Assembly (NCBI GenBank): GCA_964547465.1
Contig: CAZJNI010000002.1
Coordinates: 6,043 to 70,042 of the forward strand
DNA from: an uncultured Gammaproteobacteria bacterium
GTDB taxonomy: Bacteria; Patescibacteriota; Microgenomatia; Daviesbacterales; UBA10151
DNA: 64,000 nt
Reading direction: 5' to 3'
Shown here: positions 22,006 to 31,641 of the stretch, one piece after another
How positions within the stretch are numbered: the first letter of the stretch is position 1
How the letters are laid out: every line of letters starts with the position of its first letter
Translations under genes and position numbers: made by a program
Notes under the pieces: model-generated
Databases searched by the model: none
The model's input: only the letters and a program-made list of their open reading frames with translations
Told to the model about the DNA's origin: nothing

Positions 22006-22087
22006 TGTTTGATGTTCCTTATTTAGGTACTTGATATCATTAAGTACAATCTGCTATATTCGGAGCGAAGTCTGTCCAAGAAGTATT

Positions 22088-23233
22088 ATGTTGATCAAAC
22101 CTGATGTTCAGAGATTTGCCAAGATTAAAGTCGTAGGACTTGGTGGCGGTGGTTCTAATTCTATAAGCTCCATGATTGCTCTTCAGCAAATTCAAGGGGT
22201 GGAATTTGTGGCTATAAATACCGATGCGCAAGCTTTAATGAATAATCAATCCCCCACCAAAGTACAAATTGGTGAAAGTTTAACTAAGGGTTTAGGTTCT
22301 GGTGGAGATCCGGAAATTGGCAAACAGGCAGCTGAAGAATCGACCCAAAAGTTAGAAGATGTATTGCAAGATGCTGATATGGTCTTCCTGACAGCCGGAA
22401 TGGGTGGAGGAACTGGAACAGGCTCAATTCCAATAGTTGCACAAATTGCCAAAAACGTGGGAGCTTTGACAGTAGCAGTTGTAACAAAGCCATTTTCTTT
22501 TGAAGGAACAAAAAGGATGGTGGTGGCAGAAGAAGGACTGGAGAAACTTAAGGATAAGGTTGATGCATTAATTATTATCCCCAACCAAAGGTTGCTTGAA
22601 ACCGTTGACAAAAATATCACTTTGCAGGACGCATTTAGGTTGGCAGATTCTGTCTTGGGCCAAGGGGTTCAAGGTATTTCTGATTTGATTACCATGCCAG
22701 GACTTATTAATGTTGATTTTGCAGATGTTAAAACAATCATGTCTAATGCCGGTTCTGCTTTAATGGGAATTGGTGTGGCAGGCGGGGAAAACAGGGCTGC
22801 TGCAGCAGCCAGAATGGCTATTGCCTCGCCCCTCTTGGAGGTTTCAATTGAGGGTGCCAAAGGGGTTTTGTTTAATATTGTAGGAGGATCAGATCTATCC
22901 ATGGCAGAGGTTAATGAGGCGGCACAAATTATTGCTCAAGCCGCAGATCCTGATGCTAATATTATTTTTGGTGCAACTATAAAAGAGGATCAATTGGATC
23001 AGGTTAAACTTTCTGTGATTGCCACAGGATTTGATGAAACAAGAAGAAGGCTCCGGGAATATATAGGTAGTGGAATTGGTTCATCATCCCTGCAAAATAC
23101 AGCAACACCATGGCAGGAAGAGGCTGAAGAAACTCCCGCTTCTCAAACAGTTTCTGAAGCAGAAGTGGCAGAAGAAGAGACCAAAGAGGAAGACGACTTA
23201 GAAATACCTGCTTTCTTACGTAGTAACCGCTAG
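22088..23233 (+). CDS. ftsZ: Cell division GTPase FtsZ
   Basis: Tubulin signature GGGTGTG. IKVVGLGGGGSN. Acidic C-terminal tail with DDLEIPAFLR. Confidence 0.9.
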   Translation: MLIKPDVQRFAKIKVVGLGGGGSNSISSMIALQQIQGVEFVAINTDAQALMNNQSPTKVQIGESLTKGLGSGGDPEIGKQAAEESTQKLEDVLQDADMVFLTAGMGGGTGTGSIPIVAQIAKNVGALTVAVVTKPFSFEGTKRMVVAEEGLEKLKDKVDALIIIPNQRLLETVDKNITLQDAFRLADSVLGQGVQGISDLITMPGLINVDFADVKTIMSNAGSALMGIGVAGGENRAAAAARMAIASPLLEVSIEGAKGVLFNIVGGSDLSMAEVNEAAQIIAQAADPDANIIFGATIKEDQLDQVKLSVIATGFDETRRRLREYIGSGIGSSSLQNTATPWQEEAEETPASQTVSEAEVAEEETKEEDDLEIPAFLRSNR

Positions 23234-23268
23234 AGTTAAGTCCAAAATTCTGTTAAAATTCTTTCATT

Positions 23269-26190
23269 ATGGCTAAATTGAAGAACTCGCTTCGCGAGAC
23301 CTTGCGACCCTTTCAGGGTCTAAAAAGCGTTTCTTCGCAAGTTGATTTTCCAGCTCTGGAGAGGGAACTCCTAGACTATTGGTACAAAGAGGGAATTATT
23401 GAGAAATATCTAAAAAAGAACCAGGAGGCTGAAGAAAAATTTTCTTTTCTGGATGGGCCGATTACTGCCAATAATCCAATGGGGGTTCATCATGCCTGGG
23501 GAAGAACTTATAAGGATCTTTGGCAAAGATTTTTTAACATGAAGGGTTATGCGCAGAGGTTTCAGAATGGATTTGATGAGCAAGGACTCTGGGTAGAAGT
23601 TGAAGTAGAAAAAGAACTAGGACTACATAGTAAAAAAGATATCGAAAATTTAATACCAGGAGATAAATTTAAAAGTTTGGAAAAATTTATTAATCTTTGT
23701 AAAGAGAGGGTAAAGAAATTTTCTGAAATTCAAACTGACCAAAGTAAAAGACTAGGCTATTTTATGGATTGGGATAATTCTTACCATACTTCCTCTGATG
23801 AAAACAATTTCGCAATCTGGAATTTCTTAAAAGTTGTTAATGATAAAGGCTGGCTTTATAAAGGGCATGATAGTGTTCCATGGTGTCCAAGATGCGGAAC
23901 AGCAATTTCCCAGCATGAAATTTTGACAGAGGATTATAAAGAAATTGATCATGAATCAGTATATTTCAAGTTACCCATTAGAGATAGAAAAAATGAATAC
24001 TTAGTTGTTTGGACAACTACTCCATGGACTATACCAGCCAATGTTGCTGTGGCCGTGGATCCAAAAATAAAGTATGTAAAAATAGAGGAAAATGGTGAAA
24101 TTTATTACCTAGCTGAATCAAGACTGGGCATTATAGGAAAGGGTGTAGTCATCAGTAATGCTGTATCAGCTAAAGATTTAGTGGGACTTGAATATGAAGC
24201 TCCATTTGATCATCTGCCTAGAGTTTCAGAAGCTTTGGGCGAATATATCCATAGGGTGGTAGAAACTGATGACTTAATTTTACCCATTACAACTGAAGAG
24301 GGAACTGGATTAGTCCATGTAGCTCCAGGTGCCGGGTCAGAAGATTTTAAATTGGGAAAAAAATTAGGTCTTCCAGTAATTGAGCTCATTGATGAGGAAG
24401 CAAATTATATGGACAAAATGGAGGATTTCTCTAATCAGAATGCTAAAAAACATCCGGAATTAATAATAGATTTTCTAAACAAAAAAGATGGCGGGAAATT
24501 TTTGTTTAAGACTGAAAGAATAAAACATAGATATCCAAATTGCTGGAGATGTAAATCCGAACTTGTTTGGAGAGTTGTTGATGAGTGGTACATAGCAATG
24601 GATCGTGATGACGAATCAGGAAAAACTTATCGGGAACAAATGGTGGAAGTTGTTAAAAACATAAACTGGATACCGAAGTGGGGATTAGAGCGAGAATTAG
24701 ATTGGCTTAAAAACATGCATGATTGGTTAATTTCCAAAAAAAGATATTGGGGTTTAAGCTTACCGGTTTGGGAATGTAGTAAATGTGGTAATTTTGAAGT
24801 AATTGGTAGTAAAGAGGAGCTTAAAGAAAGAGCTGTTGAAGGTTGGGATAAGTTTGAGGGACATTCTCCGCATAGGCCCTGGATTGATCAAGTCAGGATT
24901 AAATGCTCAAATTGTTCAGAAATAATTTCAAGGATTCCAGATGTGGGGAATCCCTGGCTTGATGCTGGAATCGTACCATTCTCTACCTTGCCAGAAGACT
25001 TTTTTCCAGCAGATTTTATAACAGAAAGCTTTCCGGGTCAGTTTAAAAATTGGTTTTATTCACTTATAGCTATGAGTACAGCTTTAAAAAGAGAAGCTCC
25101 ATTTAAAAACATTTTAGGTTTTGCTTCTTTACTTGATGAAAAAGGTGAACCAATGCATAAGTCTAGGGGTAATGCCATTGAGTTTAATGAAGCAGCAGAT
25201 AAAATCGGTGCAGATGTAATGAGATGGATGTACGTTACTCAAAACCCAGAATTCAATTTACTTTTTGGATATACTCCGGCTGCTGAAGTTAAGAGAAGGT
25301 TTTATCTTATTCTATGGAATAGTTATAAGTTTTTCATAGATTATGCACTTTTGAATAAGTGGGATTGCAAAGAAGAGATTGATAATCTGACAGTTTTAGA
25401 TAAATGGGTATTAGCACGCCTTACAGAAGTTGTTTTAGCGGTTAATAAGAATTTGGAGAATTTTGATGCTGCCTCATCTACCAGGGCAATTGAGGATTTT
25501 GTAGTGAATGACTTTTCAACCTGGTACATCAGACGATCAAGGGATAGAGTCGGACTTGATGTTGATAAATCCGATCGCAGCGCAGCTTTATCAGTTATGT
25601 ACGGAGTGTTAGTCACGTTATCAAAACTTTTAGCTCCCTTTATTCCGTTTATAACTGAAGAGATGTATCAAAATTTAACTGGTGATATATCTGTACACTT
25701 AAGTGATTATCCACTGGGGGACAAAACTCTACTTGATGAAAAATTAATTGAGCAAATGAAAATAGTCAGAAAAATAGCAGAAGCAGCACATGCTAAAAGA
25801 AAAGAAGCAGGAATTAAGCTCAGACAACCCTTAGCTAGTTTAACTTATAAATCCTTAGTTCAGTTAAGGCAAGATTTAGAAAAGATTTTATCAGAGGAGC
25901 TTAATGTTAAGAAGATTGAATACCAAAAATCCTCAAAGACTGAGCCTGAAGTAGAGTTGGATACAAAAATTACTCCCGCTCTTAAAGAAGAAGGTGAGGC
26001 TAGAGATTTAATCAGGCAGGTTCAGCAACTTAGAAAGGAACAAAATCTAACTTTGGTAGATAAAACAAAAATAACTGCCCCAAGTTGGCCAAAAGATTTT
26101 GAGAAACAAATTCTTGTTGGGACAGCTTCTGTCTCTATTCAAAAAGGCAATGAGCTTTCTGTTATCAAAGTAGAAGATGTTAAATCTTAA
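23269..26190 (+). CDS. ileS: Isoleucine--tRNA ligase with divergent signature motifs
   Basis: [25 protein letters not shown] matches IleS [35 protein letters not shown] matches DWCISRQRYWG.PIP. KMSKS-like PMHKS. HIGH region is atypical (GVHHAWG). Confidence 0.8.
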   Translation: [973 protein letters not shown]

Positions 26191-27241
26191 GCTTATTAAT
26201 TGGCAAATCACCCTGGCAAGTTTTTTACTTGTTTGTATTGGAATTTTAATTATTTTTTCATCATCCAGGGAACTTGCCATACAGCAGATAATCTTTAGCA
26301 TTTTAGGACTTACTTTTTTCCTGATAGTTTCACAGCTTGATTTTCATGCTTTAGTGAGCTTCATAAAGCCTGCTTATTTTTTAATAATTTTTTTACTTAT
26401 TGCAGTTTTAATCTTGGGAGTAGAAACCAGGGGAACTTTGAGATGGATACCTTTAGGGATTTTCAATATTCAACCATCCGAGTTTGCAAAACCAATATTA
26501 ATTTTATTTTTAGCAAGATTCTGGTCAAATAATATTCCCTCCTGGAGAAATATTTTTAAATGCTTGCTTTGGGTTTTACCTATTTTTATTCTAATATTTA
26601 AGCAACCAGACTTGGGTTCTGCCTTAACTATTGCAGCAATCTGGTTAGGTATGTTATTTGCAGCAAAAGTTTCCCTTAAAAAAATAATTGTTATTATATT
26701 AATTAGCGCATTTATTCTTCCCTTAGGTTGGCATCTTTTGCATGATTATCAAAGACAAAGGATTATCAGCTTTTTAGCTCCTCAAAGCGACCCATTAGGT
26801 AGGGGATATAATTTAATTCAATCAACCATTGCTGTTGGATCAGGACAGTTTTTAGGAAGAGGTTTAGGAAGAGGGACTCAATCCAGGCTTCAATTTTTGC
26901 CTGAATTTAGAACTGATTTTATTTTTGCCTCAATTGCGGAGGAGATGGGACTTTTAGGTTCAGCTGTTATTTTGAGTTTATATCTTTTTATAATTGTTTA
27001 TAGTTTATTTCTTGCCAATAAAATTTCGGATCCGGCAAATTTACTCCTAATTGTTGGGGTTGTATCAATGCTTCTTTTCCAGACTTTTGTTAATATTGGA
27101 ATGAATATGGGTCTTTTACCAATTACAGGTATTACTCTGCCTTTGATTTCTTATGGCGGCAGTTCTTTAATAGCTACTTTTATATGTTTGGGACTTATCT
27201 CATCAGCCTGGAAATTTGGGAAAAGAATTGACCACGATTAG
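26177..27241 (+). CDS. rodA: SEDS-family protein, RodA-like (second SEDS copy)
   Basis: Multi-TM protein with a SEDS C-terminal region (LLPITGITLPLISYGGSSL). Confidence 0.7.
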   Translation: MLNLKLINWQITLASFLLVCIGILIIFSSSRELAIQQIIFSILGLTFFLIVSQLDFHALVSFIKPAYFLIIFLLIAVLILGVETRGTLRWIPLGIFNIQPSEFAKPILILFLARFWSNNIPSWRNIFKCLLWVLPIFILIFKQPDLGSALTIAAIWLGMLFAAKVSLKKIIVIILISAFILPLGWHLLHDYQRQRIISFLAPQSDPLGRGYNLIQSTIAVGSGQFLGRGLGRGTQSRLQFLPEFRTDFIFASIAEEMGLLGSAVILSLYLFIIVYSLFLANKISDPANLLLIVGVVSMLLFQTFVNIGMNMGLLPITGITLPLISYGGSSLIATFICLGLISSAWKFGKRIDHD

Positions 27242-27262
27242 TTTACATGTTAAAATCTCTCC

Positions 27263-27568
27263 ATGTTAAATTATGCAATCTGTGAAATAAACGGTAAACA
27301 ATATAAGATTTTCCCTAATATTCCTTTGTTGATTGATTATCAAGGCGAAAAAAATAAGGATATAGAGGCTAATGTTTTGCTAATGGAGGATGGTAAGCTG
27401 CATTTGGGAAAGCCGTATCTTAAGGAAAAATTAAATTTAAAATTTGTTGAGAATACTCAAGGAGAGAAAGTCAGAGTATCTAAATTTCATGCCAAGGCAA
27501 ATTATAGAAAAATAACAGGTAAAAGAGCAAAATTTACCAAAGTTGTTCTGAATGTGAAAAGGGCTTGA
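27263..27568 (+). CDS. rplU: 50S ribosomal protein L21
   Basis: MLNYAICEINGKQYKI... Confidence 0.85.
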   Translation: MLNYAICEINGKQYKIFPNIPLLIDYQGEKNKDIEANVLLMEDGKLHLGKPYLKEKLNLKFVENTQGEKVRVSKFHAKANYRKITGKRAKFTKVVLNVKRA

Positions 27569-27592
27569 TACGTTCATGAGACTGAACGTATC
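27567..27592. repeat. Hairpin element GATACGTTCA-tgagac-TGAACGTATC in the L21-L27 spacer
   Basis: Perfect 10-bp inverted repeat seen directly. Related to elements at 43331 and 56724. Confidence 0.6.
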
Positions 27593-27638
27593 TTGACAAT
27601 AGTTTTCACGGAGTGTATCTTACAATTGTCTTAATGTT

Positions 27639-27884
27639 ATGGCGCATAAAGCAGGTGGTGGAAGTACCAGAAAAAATAGAGATTCGATATCAAAGCGTTT
27701 AGGCGTTAAAATTTATGGTGGAGCAAAAGTAATTTCAGGCAACATTATTGTCCGTCAAAAAGGAAATAAATTTTATCCGGGAGTTGGGACAAAGCAGGGT
27801 AATGACTACACAATATTCGCAGTGACGAGTGGAAAAATAGAATTTAAGAAAAAGTTGGGAAAAAGTTTAATTAATGTTGTTTAA
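27639..27884 (+). CDS. rpmA: 50S ribosomal protein L27
   Basis: [16 protein letters not shown]... Confidence 0.9.
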
Positions 27885-27890
27885 ATAAAA

Positions 27891-28736
27891 ATGGATGAAT
27901 CTATCTATGAGTTGGAAATAGACCTGCTGCAGCCAAATCCCCTGCAGCCAAGAGGATTGATCACACCGGAATCTTTATCTGAACTGGCAGAATCTATCAG
28001 GGCGCATGGAATTTTAGAGCCTATTGTGGTTGCTAAAACTCCTGCCGGTTATCAAATTATTGCAGGGGAGCGAAGATGGAGAGCTTCCAAAGTTGTGGGT
28101 ATTCCTAAGGTTCCGGTGATAATCCGGGAAACCACTCCGCAGGGTATGCTGGAGATGGCTATTGTAGAAAATGTTCAAAGGATAGATTTAAATCCGCTGG
28201 AGAGGGCCCAAGCTTACAAAAGATTAATGGATGAATTTACGCTAACTAATGCAGAAATTTCAGAAAGAGTTTCAAAAAGTCCATCCTATATTTCCAACAC
28301 AATAAGACTGCTGACCCTGCCTGATGCGCTTAAGGATGCCTTAATGTCCGGGGCCACCACAGAAGGTCATGCCAGAGCTTTAGCAGCCCTGGAGGATCCA
28401 CACCTTATTATAGAGGCTTATAAAGAAGTATTAAAAAGAAATCTATCTGTCAGGGGTACAGAGGATTTGGTTAGAAGGTTTAGGGCAAAGGAAGGAATCG
28501 GGCCTAAGAGGGCAGCTACTATTGAGACAATGCATATACTTTCAGAAGAATTGGATCGGGTGCAAAATGATTTAAGTTCTGCCTTGTCTAAAAAAGTAGA
28601 TAGGGCAGAAGTAAAGTGTTCACAAACCGGTCAAAAGGCAAAAGTGGAGTTATTATTGGAAGGAAATCCGGAAAAAACTACACCTGCCTTGGAAGATATA
28701 AGAGCGGCAATAGTTGGTTATTTTAATCTTTCGTAG
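27891..28736 (+). CDS. parB: ParB/Spo0J-family partition protein
   Basis: ParB box GILEPIVVAKTPAGYQIIAGERRWRAS. Confidence 0.85.
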   Translation: MDESIYELEIDLLQPNPLQPRGLITPESLSELAESIRAHGILEPIVVAKTPAGYQIIAGERRWRASKVVGIPKVPVIIRETTPQGMLEMAIVENVQRIDLNPLERAQAYKRLMDEFTLTNAEISERVSKSPSYISNTIRLLTLPDALKDALMSGATTEGHARALAALEDPHLIIEAYKEVLKRNLSVRGTEDLVRRFRAKEGIGPKRAATIETMHILSEELDRVQNDLSSALSKKVDRAEVKCSQTGQKAKVELLLEGNPEKTTPALEDIRAAIVGYFNLS

Positions 28737-29401: not shown

Positions 29402-29487
29402 GGAGTCATAGCTCAGTTGGTTTACCCGTTCAAATTTTTGCAGAGCAAAAACTTGCGCGGGTAAAGAGCGCCGCATTCATCCGCGCG
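29402..29487 (+). pseudogene. Degenerate tRNA-Val-like 5' fragment (acceptor 5' arm plus D-arm) with a ~43-nt hairpin inserted in the D-loop; not a functional tRNA
   Basis: GGAGTCATAGCTCAGTTGGTT matches the start of tRNA-Val at 29778 (GGACAAGTAGCTCAGTTGGTT). An inserted imperfect hairpin at 29422-29464 is followed by a non-pairing anticodon-arm-like stretch. No 3' acceptor complement. Confidence 0.35.
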
Positions 29488-29523
29488 AATCTTAACAGAT
29501 TCGATCGGATTCACATATAAAAT

Positions 29524-29787
29524 ATGTATTATGTATACGTTCTTAGGAGCTTAAAGGATGGAAAGTTATATTCTGGGTATACATCCAATTTGAAGCAAAG
29601 ATTGGAATACCATAATAATGGTAAGGTAGAATCTACTAAATGGAGAAAACCTTTTGAGTTGATCTATTTTGAAGGGTATAATCATCATCAAGATGCAACT
29701 GCAAGAGAAAAGTTCTTTAAGACGCAATGGGGTAGGAATTATATAAGGAGGGTGTTAAAGAATTATTGGAAAGAAATGGACAAGTAG
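29524..29787 (+). CDS. Small GIY-YIG nuclease-domain protein (YhbQ/UPF0213-like); stop codon overlaps the first 10 nt of tRNA-Val
   Basis: YVYVLRS..DGKLYSGYTSNLKQRLEYHNNG is a GIY-YIG motif. 87 aa. Confidence 0.75.
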   Translation: MYYVYVLRSLKDGKLYSGYTSNLKQRLEYHNNGKVESTKWRKPFELIYFEGYNHHQDATAREKFFKTQWGRNYIRRVLKNYWKEMDK

Positions 29788-29851
29788 CTCAGTTGGTTAG
29801 AGCGTCGCATTCACATTGCGAAGGCCACAGGTCCGAGTCCTGTCTTGTCCA
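29778..29851 (+). tRNA. tRNA-Val (anticodon CAC)
   Basis: Manual fold: acceptor GGACAAG/CTTGTCC, D-arm GCTC..GAGC, anticodon stem TCGCA/TGCGA with loop TTCACAT, T-arm ACAGG-TCCGAGT-CCTGT. No encoded CCA. Confidence 0.8.
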
Positions 29852-29852
29852 C

Positions 29853-31502
29853 TTACAGGGATTTTGTTCGATTATTGTAGTATTCAGCAACTTTTTCATC
29901 AGTTGTGTACCATCTTCCTAAAAACCAAACAGCATCCAGTCTACCTCCATGTGCATGCGGGACAAGTGATTTATCAAAACTTGCAACCCTTTTGATTCCT
30001 GCTGGATAAATAATTTTATTCTCAATAGCTTTTCTAGCGATTGATAAAGCACCTGTAATACTATCTTCAGATTTGTCTAACCCCTTTTCTATATCAGTAC
30101 TTTTTTTGCCCTGCAGCTTTAAATTAACAATTTCTAATATGTAGGGAGACAAATTTACCTCTCTGATTTTCAGCCATTCATTAAATTGTCTTAGAAAAAT
30201 ATCAACTGCCAACTCAAAGTTATCTGGTTGAGGTAAATGACGTCTTTTTTTCCGAGGTAGCCTATGATCAGAAATGGCTTTAGCAGTCTTAAAAAACCAA
30301 TTCCGAAAATTCTCATGAGAATCATTTTCTGGCATATTCTCTAACTCAACTGCAGAAAAAAGTTCAATCTGTCTTTGTGATATTGAATTGATTACTTCAA
30401 TAGGTCTAATATTATTTTGTGACGCTGTGTAAGTAGTTAAAAATTCTTTCGCATCTTCTGGTTTAATAAACCACCAGCTACCTTTTTTAACTCCTGGTAA
30501 ATATCCGCTTGCTAGTGCCTCTGTTAATCTATTTTTCACAGCAGGAGTAGCTGGAAAATCACTTACTTGTTGATATTCTTTTCCGGGAGATTTTATTCTT
30601 CTTTTCGCTCTAATTCTTTTACTTCTAAATTCATTCAACCCTTCTTGGGTGATATAGATCCTTCCTTGAGTTCGGGTTAAAAGATGTTTATATCTAAATC
30701 CTAATAGGGTTCCATACTCATCTGACGTTGTTTGTTCAGCAAGAGGTAAAAATCCTTGTTCCAGCATTGATGTACTTAGTGTAACTCTTTTATAATGATA
30801 TCTTTGCACCCATTCATCCGTTGTATACCAGCGTCCTAGAAATTTTACTGCTTCTAAACCACCTCTGCTAGCTGCTGTTGCTAGGGAGCCATCTTGATAA
30901 TCAGCTAGTAGTCTAAATCCAGCTGGATAGAATAGATTTCCTTCAATTTTGTCTCTTGCCCTATACATTAAATTAAGTACTGCCCGTTGGGTAGATCCTA
31001 ACTCGTCTATAATTTCAGATATTCCTTTACCCGCTGTTCTTAGTTCTACAGCTTTTAATTGGGCGGGGGTTAGTAATTCGGTAAGTCTATCTTTAAACCT
31101 TGGCATCAAATCTATGAAAGTAGTCTCTGTTCTCTCTTTTGGTTGCCTAACAAAAGTATCCTCAAAAGATACACCACGTGTCCTGATAATTCTCCTTAAC
31201 TCCATATTTATATTTGCTCTAGCTATAGTAAATGTCCACTTGATAAATGTCTTTGTTGGATCCTTACCTTTCAGATCAAACTCAAAAGACGGAAGAGCAG
31301 CATACATTTCTGAAAGAGTATCTTGGGTAAGGTCTTCAGCTTCGTTTGGAAGACGACGTACTAAATATCTAAATAATTCTGGTCTTAAAAAACCATCTAA
31401 TTCAGCAAAAGCCCGCTCATCTCCAGCTTTTATTCTCTTAACCACCAATGGTATATCAATTGAAGGTTTTGGTGTCCCTCTGCCTTCTGCTTCTAAAGTC
31501 AT
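29853..31502 (-). CDS. ECF-type sigma-70 family factor (regions 2 and 4) fused to a ~350-aa extension. The extension carries a second region-4-like HTH, and each HTH is followed by a repeated YPAG[FI]..GG.L.AV.FLGRWYTTDE module
   Basis: Region 2: AGDERAFAEL..LFRYLVRRLPNEAEDLTQDT..WTFTIARAN. Region 4: LTPAQLKAVELRTAGKGISEIIDELGSTQRAVLNLMYRARDKI. Internal duplication seen directly in the translation. Confidence 0.6.
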   Translation of the reverse strand: MTLEAEGRGTPKPSIDIPLVVKRIKAGDERAFAELDGFLRPELFRYLVRRLPNEAEDLTQDTLSEMYAALPSFEFDLKGKDPTKTFIKWTFTIARANINMELRRIIRTRGVSFEDTFVRQPKERTETTFIDLMPRFKDRLTELLTPAQLKAVELRTAGKGISEIIDELGSTQRAVLNLMYRARDKIEGNLFYPAGFRLLADYQDGSLATAASRGGLEAVKFLGRWYTTDEWVQRYHYKRVTLSTSMLEQGFLPLAEQTTSDEYGTLLGFRYKHLLTRTQGRIYITQEGLNEFRSKRIRAKRRIKSPGKEYQQVSDFPATPAVKNRLTEALASGYLPGVKKGSWWFIKPEDAKEFLTTYTASQNNIRPIEVINSISQRQIELFSAVELENMPENDSHENFRNWFFKTAKAISDHRLPRKKRRHLPQPDNFELAVDIFLRQFNEWLKIREVNLSPYILEIVNLKLQGKKSTDIEKGLDKSEDSITGALSIARKAIENKIIYPAGIKRVASFDKSLVPHAHGGRLDAVWFLGRWYTTDEKVAEYYNNRTKSL

Positions 31503-31518
31503 GAGATCATTATATAAA

Positions 31519-31641
31519 ATGCCTATTTATAGTCAAATTAATTACATAAATCATTACGGTAAACCTCAAGATATAGAGTGGGCAATTGATGATCAGGGGA
31601 AAATTTGGATTCTTCAGTCAAGGCCAATAACTACGCTTTAA
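31519..31641 (+). pseudogene. Relic of a PEP-utilizing enzyme ATP-grasp (PPDK_N-type) gene: only the domain's C-terminal signature survives
   Basis: GKPQDIEWAIDDQGKIWILQSRPITTL matches the conserved DIEWA...G.LYILQ.RPIT end of the PPDK_N domain. Compare YEWMVDGGVKLIGIKPYTP in the 59525 ORF. The upstream part of the ORF is antisense to the sigma-like gene. Confidence 0.45.

Follow-up and report, generated by a model that had tools for sequence, protein, structure and literature searches.

The closest described counterparts of the gene that we analyze here are sigma factors of the extracytoplasmic function (ECF) type that carry regulatory extensions. The gene lies on a 64,000-nucleotide stretch of DNA from contig CAZJNI010000002.1 (hereafter, the window) and encodes a protein of 549 amino acids (aa). 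Like those ECF sigma factors, the protein has a minimal core of a sigma2 and a sigma4 domain joined by a short linker, it has a long extension after sigma4, and there is no anti-sigma gene nearby. Unlike the extensions that have been described, this one is a tandem series of winged-helix modules of a DNA-binding type (M1 to M4) together with a second sigma4, and we propose that it reads DNA and does not sense a signal. No helix-turn-helix (HTH), winged-helix, or DNA-binding extension appears in the 2021 reclassification of the ECF sigma factors (PMC7826278) or in the 2022 review of non-canonical ECF sigma factors (PMC8999054), and full-text literature searches for fusions of sigma factors to winged helices found none. 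A first-pass annotation, made from the sequence alone, had described the architecture as unusual, and the two surveys bear this out. What is new is the class of extension and the partial internal duplication; the core, of the sigma70 family and ECF type, is of a known kind.

Parts of the extension also resemble other systems. BldC from Streptomyces (MerR-like; PDB 6amk) is a free protein of 68 residues that forms a non-covalent oligomer and has only ~8% sequence identity to the modules considered here, which are part of one covalent chain with a sigma factor. The 549-aa protein is not a small, stand-alone, single-domain protein that oligomerizes head-to-tail on direct repeats, as members of the BldC family are, but it may work like BldC. 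Proteins in Pfam's HTH_17 family (PF12728; Xis, TorI, RdfS, and others) share the beta-alpha-alpha-wing topology of the modules, and many modules from the family described below have in-register matches to HTH_17 that fall below the threshold. Unlike the HTH_17 systems, the modules of the 549-aa protein do not reach the gathering score, direct recognition fails for the divergent M1, M2, and M4, and an integrase partner is absent. Among single-chain tandems, TraN of plasmid pIP501 (PDB 4p0y / 4pm3) comes nearest, with two Xis-like winged helices. TraN is a conjugation protein with just those two modules and without sigma domains, and its Foldseek match is not significant (E = 0.3). Class II activators and the "sigma appropriation" factor MotA from phage T4 sit at or just upstream of the -35 box, by the C-terminal end of sigma4, where they extend the recognition of promoters or redirect it. 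These are separate proteins that act in trans, whereas here the DNA-binding modules would be fused to the sigma factor in cis; the analogy is functional.

Domains of the 549-residue protein

The frame on the plus strand has many stops across the gene, there is a single open reading frame (ORF) on the minus strand (Table 1), and all of the peptide strings quoted in the first-pass annotation are found in its translation. The protein has an isoelectric point of 9.5 and a net charge of +16.

Residues ~18-190 are a group 4 (ECF-type) sigma factor of the sigma70 family, with sigma2 and sigma4. A complete ECF-like sigma factor had been read at the N-terminus before, and Pfam, NCBIfam, and Foldseek all support this. 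Pfam's Sigma70_r2 matches aa 40-104 with 24.0 bits (E = 3.3e-5), which equals the model's gathering score, and the match of Sigma70_r4_2 to aa 139-186 is below its threshold (13.9 bits versus 25.7, E = 0.04). The NCBIfam model for sigma70-ECF (TIGR02937) matches aa 41-187 with E = 1.6e-10 (40.9 bits versus a cut-off of 42.9), and the top NCBIfam equivalog, the BldN family, is far below its cut-off (42.6 bits versus 206). Relatives in the family score above the Pfam thresholds for r2, r4_2, and Sigma70_ECF. When we compared the AlphaFold2 (AF2) model to PDB with Foldseek, the top 27 matches were all ECF sigma factors (sigmaE, BldN, AlgU, SigH, SigW, SigK, and others), including structures of region 2 of sigmaE with target-normalised TM-scores of 0.7-0.8. 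Sigma2 is intact and conserved, including the AEDLTQDT ... WTFTIARAN pattern of motifs for binding core RNA polymerase and the -10 box. Neither Pfam nor NCBIfam gave a match to the r1 or r3 domains, and in place of sigma3 there is only a linker of 26 aa. In the AF2 model, the helices of sigma4 are at aa 133-143, 146-156, 161-168, and 172-194, and the last of these (the recognition helix) is long and continues directly into M1.

The first-pass annotation had also reported two copies of a "YPAG...GRWYTTDE" module, with no fold assigned. We found that this is one of four homologous modules of ~50 aa, each with the topology beta-alpha-alpha-beta-beta-alpha, and that M2 and M3 are more divergent copies that lie between the two units of the repeat described below. 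A prediction for M1-M3 from an alignment of 40 sequences gave three such beta-alpha-alpha-beta-beta-alpha units, with a mean predicted local distance difference test (pLDDT) of 93.3 and a predicted TM-score (pTM) of 0.68. In the AF2 models, M1 has strands at 196-198, 219-221, and 224-228 and helices at 199-202, 205-213, and 229-240; M2 is beta-alpha-alpha-(alpha)-beta-beta-alpha; and M4 has strands at 525-527 and 530-533 and a helix at 535-548. Profile-profile comparisons with hhalign, with 39-92 copies per module, linked M1 to M4 (probability 99.85%, E = 6.8e-31), M1 to M3 (98.4%), M3 to M4 (98.3%), and M2 to M3 (97.4%, E = 1.2e-11).

By fold and remote homology, the modules are divergent winged helices of the HTH_17/excisionase/MerR superfamily and are BldC-like. 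They have the beta1-alpha1-alpha2-beta2-beta3 (wing) arrangement of this superfamily, which includes the N-terminal domains of the MerR family (BmrR, CarA-N, GlnR, TnrA, SoxR, and TipAL), pSK1 Par, RacA, and the excisionases Pukovnik Xis, RdfS, TorI, and Tn916 Xis. Among 79 M3 modules from the family, 27 individually match HTH_17 in register (all below the threshold; the best has E = 1.3e-4), and no other Pfam family recurs. Within the 549-aa protein itself, the best match to HTH_17 is M3, with E = 7. Several relatives have HTH_17 matches on M1, M3, or M4. Because M1 and M4 are too divergent for Pfam, their assignment rests on their homology to M3 and on their fold. The profile for the C-terminal region also retrieved P0153, a protein of 714 aa with five canonical HTH_17 domains (E = 2e-42), and the repeats in P0153 open with "PGP.Y", which is the same motif as in M3. 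Foldseek searches of PDB with the three-module model gave no significant match, and neither did sequence searches of PDB with the modules. A segment of a multiheme cytochrome (PDB 6qvm_A, residues 154-197; "LKKYADYTKAASANQKALVWAVKKGYLSARKAGSKLYLDP") resembles M3 with E = 0.1; this could be a match by chance, or an HTH_17-like insert that has gone unrecognised.

We also considered whether the modules might be SnoaL, TPR, Cys-rich, zinc-finger, transmembrane, or anti-sigma domains, but aa 189-549 have no such Pfam match at E <= 10 and the fold is a winged helix. In particular, the module is not an anti-sigma or SnoaL-like domain of the kind known from ECF41, ECF42, or ECF56.

The internal repeat is strong: its Smith-Waterman score is 175, as compared to 33.6 +/- 5.1 (maximum 52) in 200 shuffles. 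Aligning the profile of aa 78-239 to that of aa 391-545 with hhalign gave a probability of 99.8% (E = 4.6e-29, 34% identity over 148 columns). The repeated module had been noticed before, and it holds up, but the repeat is longer than was described and includes part of sigma2. It begins with the last helix of sigma2 (region 2.4-like, "F..W.F..A"), which is followed by a linker, sigma4, and the module. When the two copies of the helix are aligned, "F..WFFKTAK..SD.RL" in the second unit corresponds to "F..WTFTIAR.N...EL" in sigma2. Columns of the second copy and its basic linker (aa 393-439) rank among the most conserved in the family; the invariant ones in the alignment are W402, F403, F404, A407, K408, S411, D412, K419, R420, Q425, P426, and D427. 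The second sigma4-like HTH, which had also been proposed from the sequence, is confirmed by its hhalign match to the sigma4 of the first unit. It has weak matches to NCBIfam SigH models (aa 446-496) and AF2 helices at 453-463, 468-475, and 479-501, and in one relative (P0030), r4_2 matches two stretches (E = 1.2e-14). Conservation is also seen between M2 and M3, where the R/K columns of the linker are conserved in the alignment.

Table 1. Features of the sigma gene and its surroundings, with positions in the window.
Feature	Position	Strand	Basis or remarks
Whole ORF	29853..31502	minus	549 aa + stop (stop codon 29853-29855); ORF list
Sigma2 domain, regions 2.1-2.4, aa 18-106	31185..31451	minus	Pfam, NCBIfam ECF models, Foldseek
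Sigma2-sigma4 linker, aa 107-132, predicted disordered	31107..31184	minus	AF2 pLDDT <50 for aa 108-131
Sigma4 domain, aa 133-190	30933..31106	minus	Pfam r4_2, TIGR02937, AF2 helices
Module M1, aa 191-240, YPAG...GLEAVKFLGRWYTTDEWVQRY, winged helix	30783..30932	minus	AF2, hhalign
Module M2, aa 244-296, GFLPLAE...GRIYITQEGLNEFR, divergent winged helix	30615..30773	minus	AF2, hhalign
M2-M3 linker, aa 293-309, RSKRIRAKRRIKSPGKE, highly basic	30576..30626	minus	Net charge +8 over 17 aa
Module M3, aa 306-360, ...ASGYLPGVKKGSWWFIKPEDAKEFL, most HTH_17-like	30423..30587	minus	AF2, Pfam on relatives
Acidic low-confidence spacer, aa 361-392	30327..30422	minus	pLDDT <50 for aa 359-378; net charge -3
Copy of last sigma2 helix and basic linker, aa 393-439, FRNWFFKTAKAISDHRLPRKKRRHLPQPD	30186..30326	minus	hhalign of unit 1 versus unit 2
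Second sigma4-like HTH domain, aa 440-497	30012..30185	minus	hhalign to unit-1 sigma4; AF2 helices
Module M4, aa 498-549, YPAG...RLDAVWFLGRWYTTDEKVAEY	29856..30011	minus	hhalign, AF2
Sigma70-type promoter-like site, TTGACT-16-TATAAT	31509..31536	minus	11/12 matches, best site in region
tRNA-Val(CAC)	29778..29852	plus	ARAGORN; Rfam 71.3 bits; same position in L076
tRNA-like relic directly after lepB	29402-29515	plus	Aligns lengthwise with tRNA-Val
GIY-YIG nuclease ORF, 87 aa	29524-29787	plus	Pfam E = 5.7e-16
PPDK_N/PEP-utilising enzyme 3' remnant, ...QDIEWAIDDQGKIWILQSRPITTL*	31549-31641	plus	PF01326 E = 5.4e-11, profile positions 282-311 of 328
KilA-N protein, 275 aa	31697-32524	minus	Pfam E = 1.9e-19; PHROG 2657 "transcriptional regulator" E = 8e-56

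The protein family

An exhaustive HMMER search with the profile for the C-terminal region identified 198 clusters (at 50% identity) with E <= 1e-3 and 121 with E <= 1e-10. Nearly all of these are known from metagenomes only. The dominant form of the family is sigma2-sigma4-M1-M2-M3, with a length of ~365 aa and a fixed spacing of the modules: across 58 proteins, the median distance is 55 aa from M1 to M2 (interquartile range 54-57) and 62 aa from M2 to M3 (interquartile range 61-64). The duplicated form, which adds the sigma2.4-like helix, a second sigma4 (sigma4'), and M4, is a rarer variant (about 7-8 of the 155 proteins examined). The architecture that drew attention to the gene is thus not the typical one; a sigma factor with three modules and without the duplication is commoner. 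Five homologues from independent samples, at 47-53% identity, are full-length and keep the whole architecture, and a Logan contig from a separate run encodes an identical protein of 549 aa.

The unit of sigma4 plus module has been duplicated at differing positions in P0022, P0058, P0030, and P0016; in the first three of these, the extra unit follows one or two modules. Two other proteins (P0009 and P0019) have sigma4-module units without sigma2. Most of the matches that seemed to be "module-only" have a divergent HTH of the sigma4/GerE type ahead of the modules. Sigma4 and the module, taken together, act as a cassette of their own. Other arrangements also occur: P0023 (606 aa) has a group-3-like sigma factor (r1.2, r2, and r4) that is extended by a second sigma4 and three modules, and P0076 (715 aa) has about eight tandem M2-like modules and no sigma domains.

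The C-terminal region had no match by tblastn in 50,697 phage records or 72,556 plasmid records, and there was no homologue in the viral contigs of IMG/VR. A scan of JGI metagenomes matched a single locus.

A proposed reader of upstream DNA

Our preferred explanation, in which we have about as much belief as doubt, is that this is a working ECF sigma factor whose C-terminal array of winged helices binds DNA upstream of the -35 box. Sigma2 and sigma4 would bind core RNA polymerase, the -10 box, and the -35 box as in other ECF sigma factors. M1, M2, and M3, which are held at fixed spacing by basic linkers, would be placed on the DNA directly upstream of -35 and would read an additional sequence there, probably made of direct repeats, much as BldC or Xis line up head-to-tail on repeats of ~9 bp but within one polypeptide. 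Such a sigma factor would carry its own upstream activator or reader of UP elements, and its promoters would be long and very specific. In the duplicated variant, the sigma2.4-like helix, the basic linker, sigma4', and M4 might form a second composite HTH/winged-helix head for a more distal site. The analyses establish the identities of the domains, the homology of the modules, the duplication, the conserved architecture, and the taxonomy, whereas DNA binding by the modules, their position relative to -35, and the function of the second unit are inferred.

We infer that the modules bind DNA because they belong to a DNA-binding superfamily, are basic (the mean net charge per module is +2 to +2.8), are regularly spaced, and have linkers that are rich in arginine and lysine. 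The absence of a flexible linker where M1 joins the end of sigma4's recognition helix also suggests such an array. The sigma4-module pair was copied as one piece and is also found where sigma2 is missing, which points to an autonomous DNA-binding cassette and not to a regulator of the sigma factor's conformation. As for the proposed placement, it is known from structures of sigma70 RNA polymerase at promoters and from class II activators that sigma4 turns its C-terminal end towards the DNA immediately upstream of -35, so the modules would be positioned there. BldC is the best structural match, and its subunits each bind a 9-bp direct repeat, head-to-tail (PMC5859096), so a covalent tandem of such modules would be expected to do likewise in cis.

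Several observations weigh against this explanation. The positive charge of the modules is only an indirect sign of DNA binding. M1 and M4 on their own match HTH_17 in just 2 of 102 cases, and their putative recognition helix is rich in alanine and serine and is not basic. We found no candidate target promoter, or array of helically phased repeats, in the window. The AF2 model of the full-length protein (pLDDT 76) has a pTM of just 0.36, so the arrangement of the domains is not fixed by the model. Also, all of the C-terminal extensions of ECF sigma factors that were studied earlier are regulatory rather than of a DNA-binding kind (PMC7826278; PMC8999054). Those characterised sense signals, and for none of them has binding to DNA been shown or proposed.

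This last point leads to the best of the alternatives, which we consider unlikely but take seriously: the extension could be a regulatory domain of the one-component type, as in ECF41, ECF42, and ECF56. The modules or the second sigma4 unit would then fold onto sigma2, the linker, or sigma4, or would compete for the beta-flap or the core, and the sigma factor would be held inactive until a partner, a ligand, or DNA set it free. Among the ways in which ECF sigma factors are regulated, C-terminal extensions rank second in frequency, and they correlate with the absence of an anti-sigma factor (PMC7826278; PMC8999054), and no anti-sigma gene adjoins a family member at the loci that we examined. 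The duplicated "sigma2.4 helix + linker + sigma4", with its columns among the most conserved, could mimic the parts of a sigma factor that contact the core, and folds like that of MerR can mediate contacts between proteins (CbpM, DafA). However, regulatory domains that are already known (SnoaL, TPR, Cys-rich, or others) are absent from the extension, and its basic modules fall within a superfamily that binds DNA. P0009 and P0019, with their sigma4-module units but no sigma2, would not be expected if the extension only regulated sigma2 and sigma4, and the AF2 model shows no confident docking within the molecule.

If the modules do bind DNA, then a sigma factor with its own upstream array would blur the line between sigma factors and activators, and a very long and so far unrecognised class of promoters is predicted. 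The arrangement would also be a natural design for synthetic pairs of sigma factors and promoters that are highly orthogonal. More broadly, and here our doubts outweigh our confidence, the family might represent a new design for promoter specificity: an ECF sigma factor with three (here four) covalently attached, BldC/Xis-like winged-helix readers and, in the duplicated form, a second sigma4 head, which recognizes a composite promoter of 60-80 bp and needs no separate activator. As tentatively, this promoter might consist of a -10 box, a -35 box, phased upstream direct repeats, and perhaps a distal second "-35"-like site. If so, the design might offset the sparse repertoire of transcription factors in the reduced genomes of the candidate phyla radiation (CPR). 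The family offers a concrete handle on the regulation of transcription in CPR/Patescibacteria, which is almost unexplored experimentally.

Genomic setting and putative promoter of the sigma gene

The window comes from Candidatus Daviesbacteria, in the Patescibacteria/Microgenomates group of the CPR. Its FtsZ has many relatives at 85-93% identity, and proteins labeled as "Candidatus Daviesbacteria bacterium" are 85-89% identical. Six other proteins from the window (positions 22031-28736: L21, L27, ParB, RodA, and IleRS; and the KilA-N protein) stand alone when 15 billion proteins are grouped at 90% identity, which implies that the lineage is very sparsely sampled.

Two relatives share the order ftsZ-ileS-rodA-rplU-rpmA-parB-lepB, and the DNA is 67-73% identical as far as position ~29374. 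Because the gene content after lepB differs among the three genomes, we place the sigma gene in a variable region that is linked to tRNA-Val. In one relative (L075, 17160-17400), a polysaccharide flippase cluster follows lepB directly, with no insert and no tRNA. In the other (L076, 17227-21149), lepB is followed by tRNA-Val(CAC) and then by a different island, with genes for an Asp-protease-like protein, DUF5678, a DpnI-like protein, GIY-YIG, LexA, HNH, and an N6/N4-methyltransferase. In the window, lepB is followed by a tRNA-like relic, a GIY-YIG gene, tRNA-Val, the sigma gene, a remnant of PPDK_N, the KilA-N gene, and then the flippase. Daviesbacteria have a hot spot for changes in gene content here, downstream of lepB.

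The 3' end of tRNA-Val (29852) abuts the stop codon of the sigma gene (29853) at the edge of the variable region. As in tRNA-linked integrative islands, the gene lies at the 3' end of a tRNA and is absent from syntenic relatives. The relic reads "GGAGTCATAGCTCAGTTGGTT", then has a 42-nt hairpin insert (29421-29465), and continues with "AGAGCGCCGCATTCA..."; ARAGORN and Rfam did not call it as a tRNA, and it probably derives from an earlier copy of tRNA-Val that an insertion event left behind and that has since decayed. The GIY-YIG ORF lies between the relic and the intact tRNA, and its last 10 nt overlap the tRNA's 5' end. The PPDK_N remnant lies between the start of the sigma gene and the KilA-N gene, and the rest of the PPDK_N gene is missing. 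The KilA-N gene is upstream of the sigma gene and on the same strand.

The idea that this is a sigma factor specific to a mobile element finds partial support in this setting: the variable region by tRNA-Val, which also holds GIY-YIG and KilA-N genes, is lacking at two syntenic Daviesbacteria loci. Other findings do not fit. We found no integrase-like ORF between 29.3 and 32.7 kb, no second, att-like copy of the 3' end of tRNA-Val (allowing up to 3 mismatches), and, as mentioned above, no homologues in phages, plasmids, or IMG/VR. Co-occurrence with KilA-N, which the first-pass annotation had proposed to check, was not seen at any of the six other family loci. The neighbors at those loci are unrelated (glycosyltransferases; type I restriction-modification; TP_methylase, LexA, and UvrB; and others), and across all seven loci there was no anti-sigma gene or conserved neighbor. 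The evidence that the region is a mobile element is incomplete.

Alternatively, the protein might chiefly be something other than an initiation factor, namely a multi-headed DNA-binding protein of the tRNA-linked island that combines sigma-derived HTHs with Xis-like modules and serves as a transcription factor, a nucleoid or centromere-like organiser, or a recombination directionality factor. We think this improbable: sigma2 is intact and conserved and keeps the motifs for binding the core and -10, homologues are found in unrelated chromosomal contexts, and the integrase, att repeat, and phage, plasmid, or viral homologues are all missing.

Lastly, although the C-terminal unit resembles a second sigma gene truncated at its 5' end and the spacer (aa 361-392) is weakly conserved and modeled with low confidence, the notion that the long ORF is an artefact (a pseudogene in decay, or two adjacent paralogues that an error in sequencing or assembly has fused) deserves hardly any credence and is effectively refuted already, because the whole architecture is kept in the five full-length homologues from independent samples and runs without stops in at least seven clusters from different samples at 47-53% identity, the Logan contig independently encodes the identical protein, and the columns of the second unit are strongly conserved.

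Returning to the sigma gene itself, its upstream region carries a near-consensus promoter of the sigma70 type and not of the ECF type, so there is no sign of ECF-type autoregulation, and the earlier suggestion that the sigma factor regulates itself is not supported. The -35 box (31531-31536) is 13 nt from the start of the PPDK_N remnant. With the end of the -10 hexamer 6 nt ahead of the ATG, and without a Shine-Dalgarno sequence, the gene may give a leaderless transcript. Similarly, at three sigma genes of the family (window, 31502-31540, minus strand; L001, 5960-6003; L002, 60-88), TATAAT-like boxes lie only 6-10 nt upstream of the ATG without a Shine-Dalgarno sequence, a pattern in the DNA that suggests leaderless or Shine-Dalgarno-independent translation.

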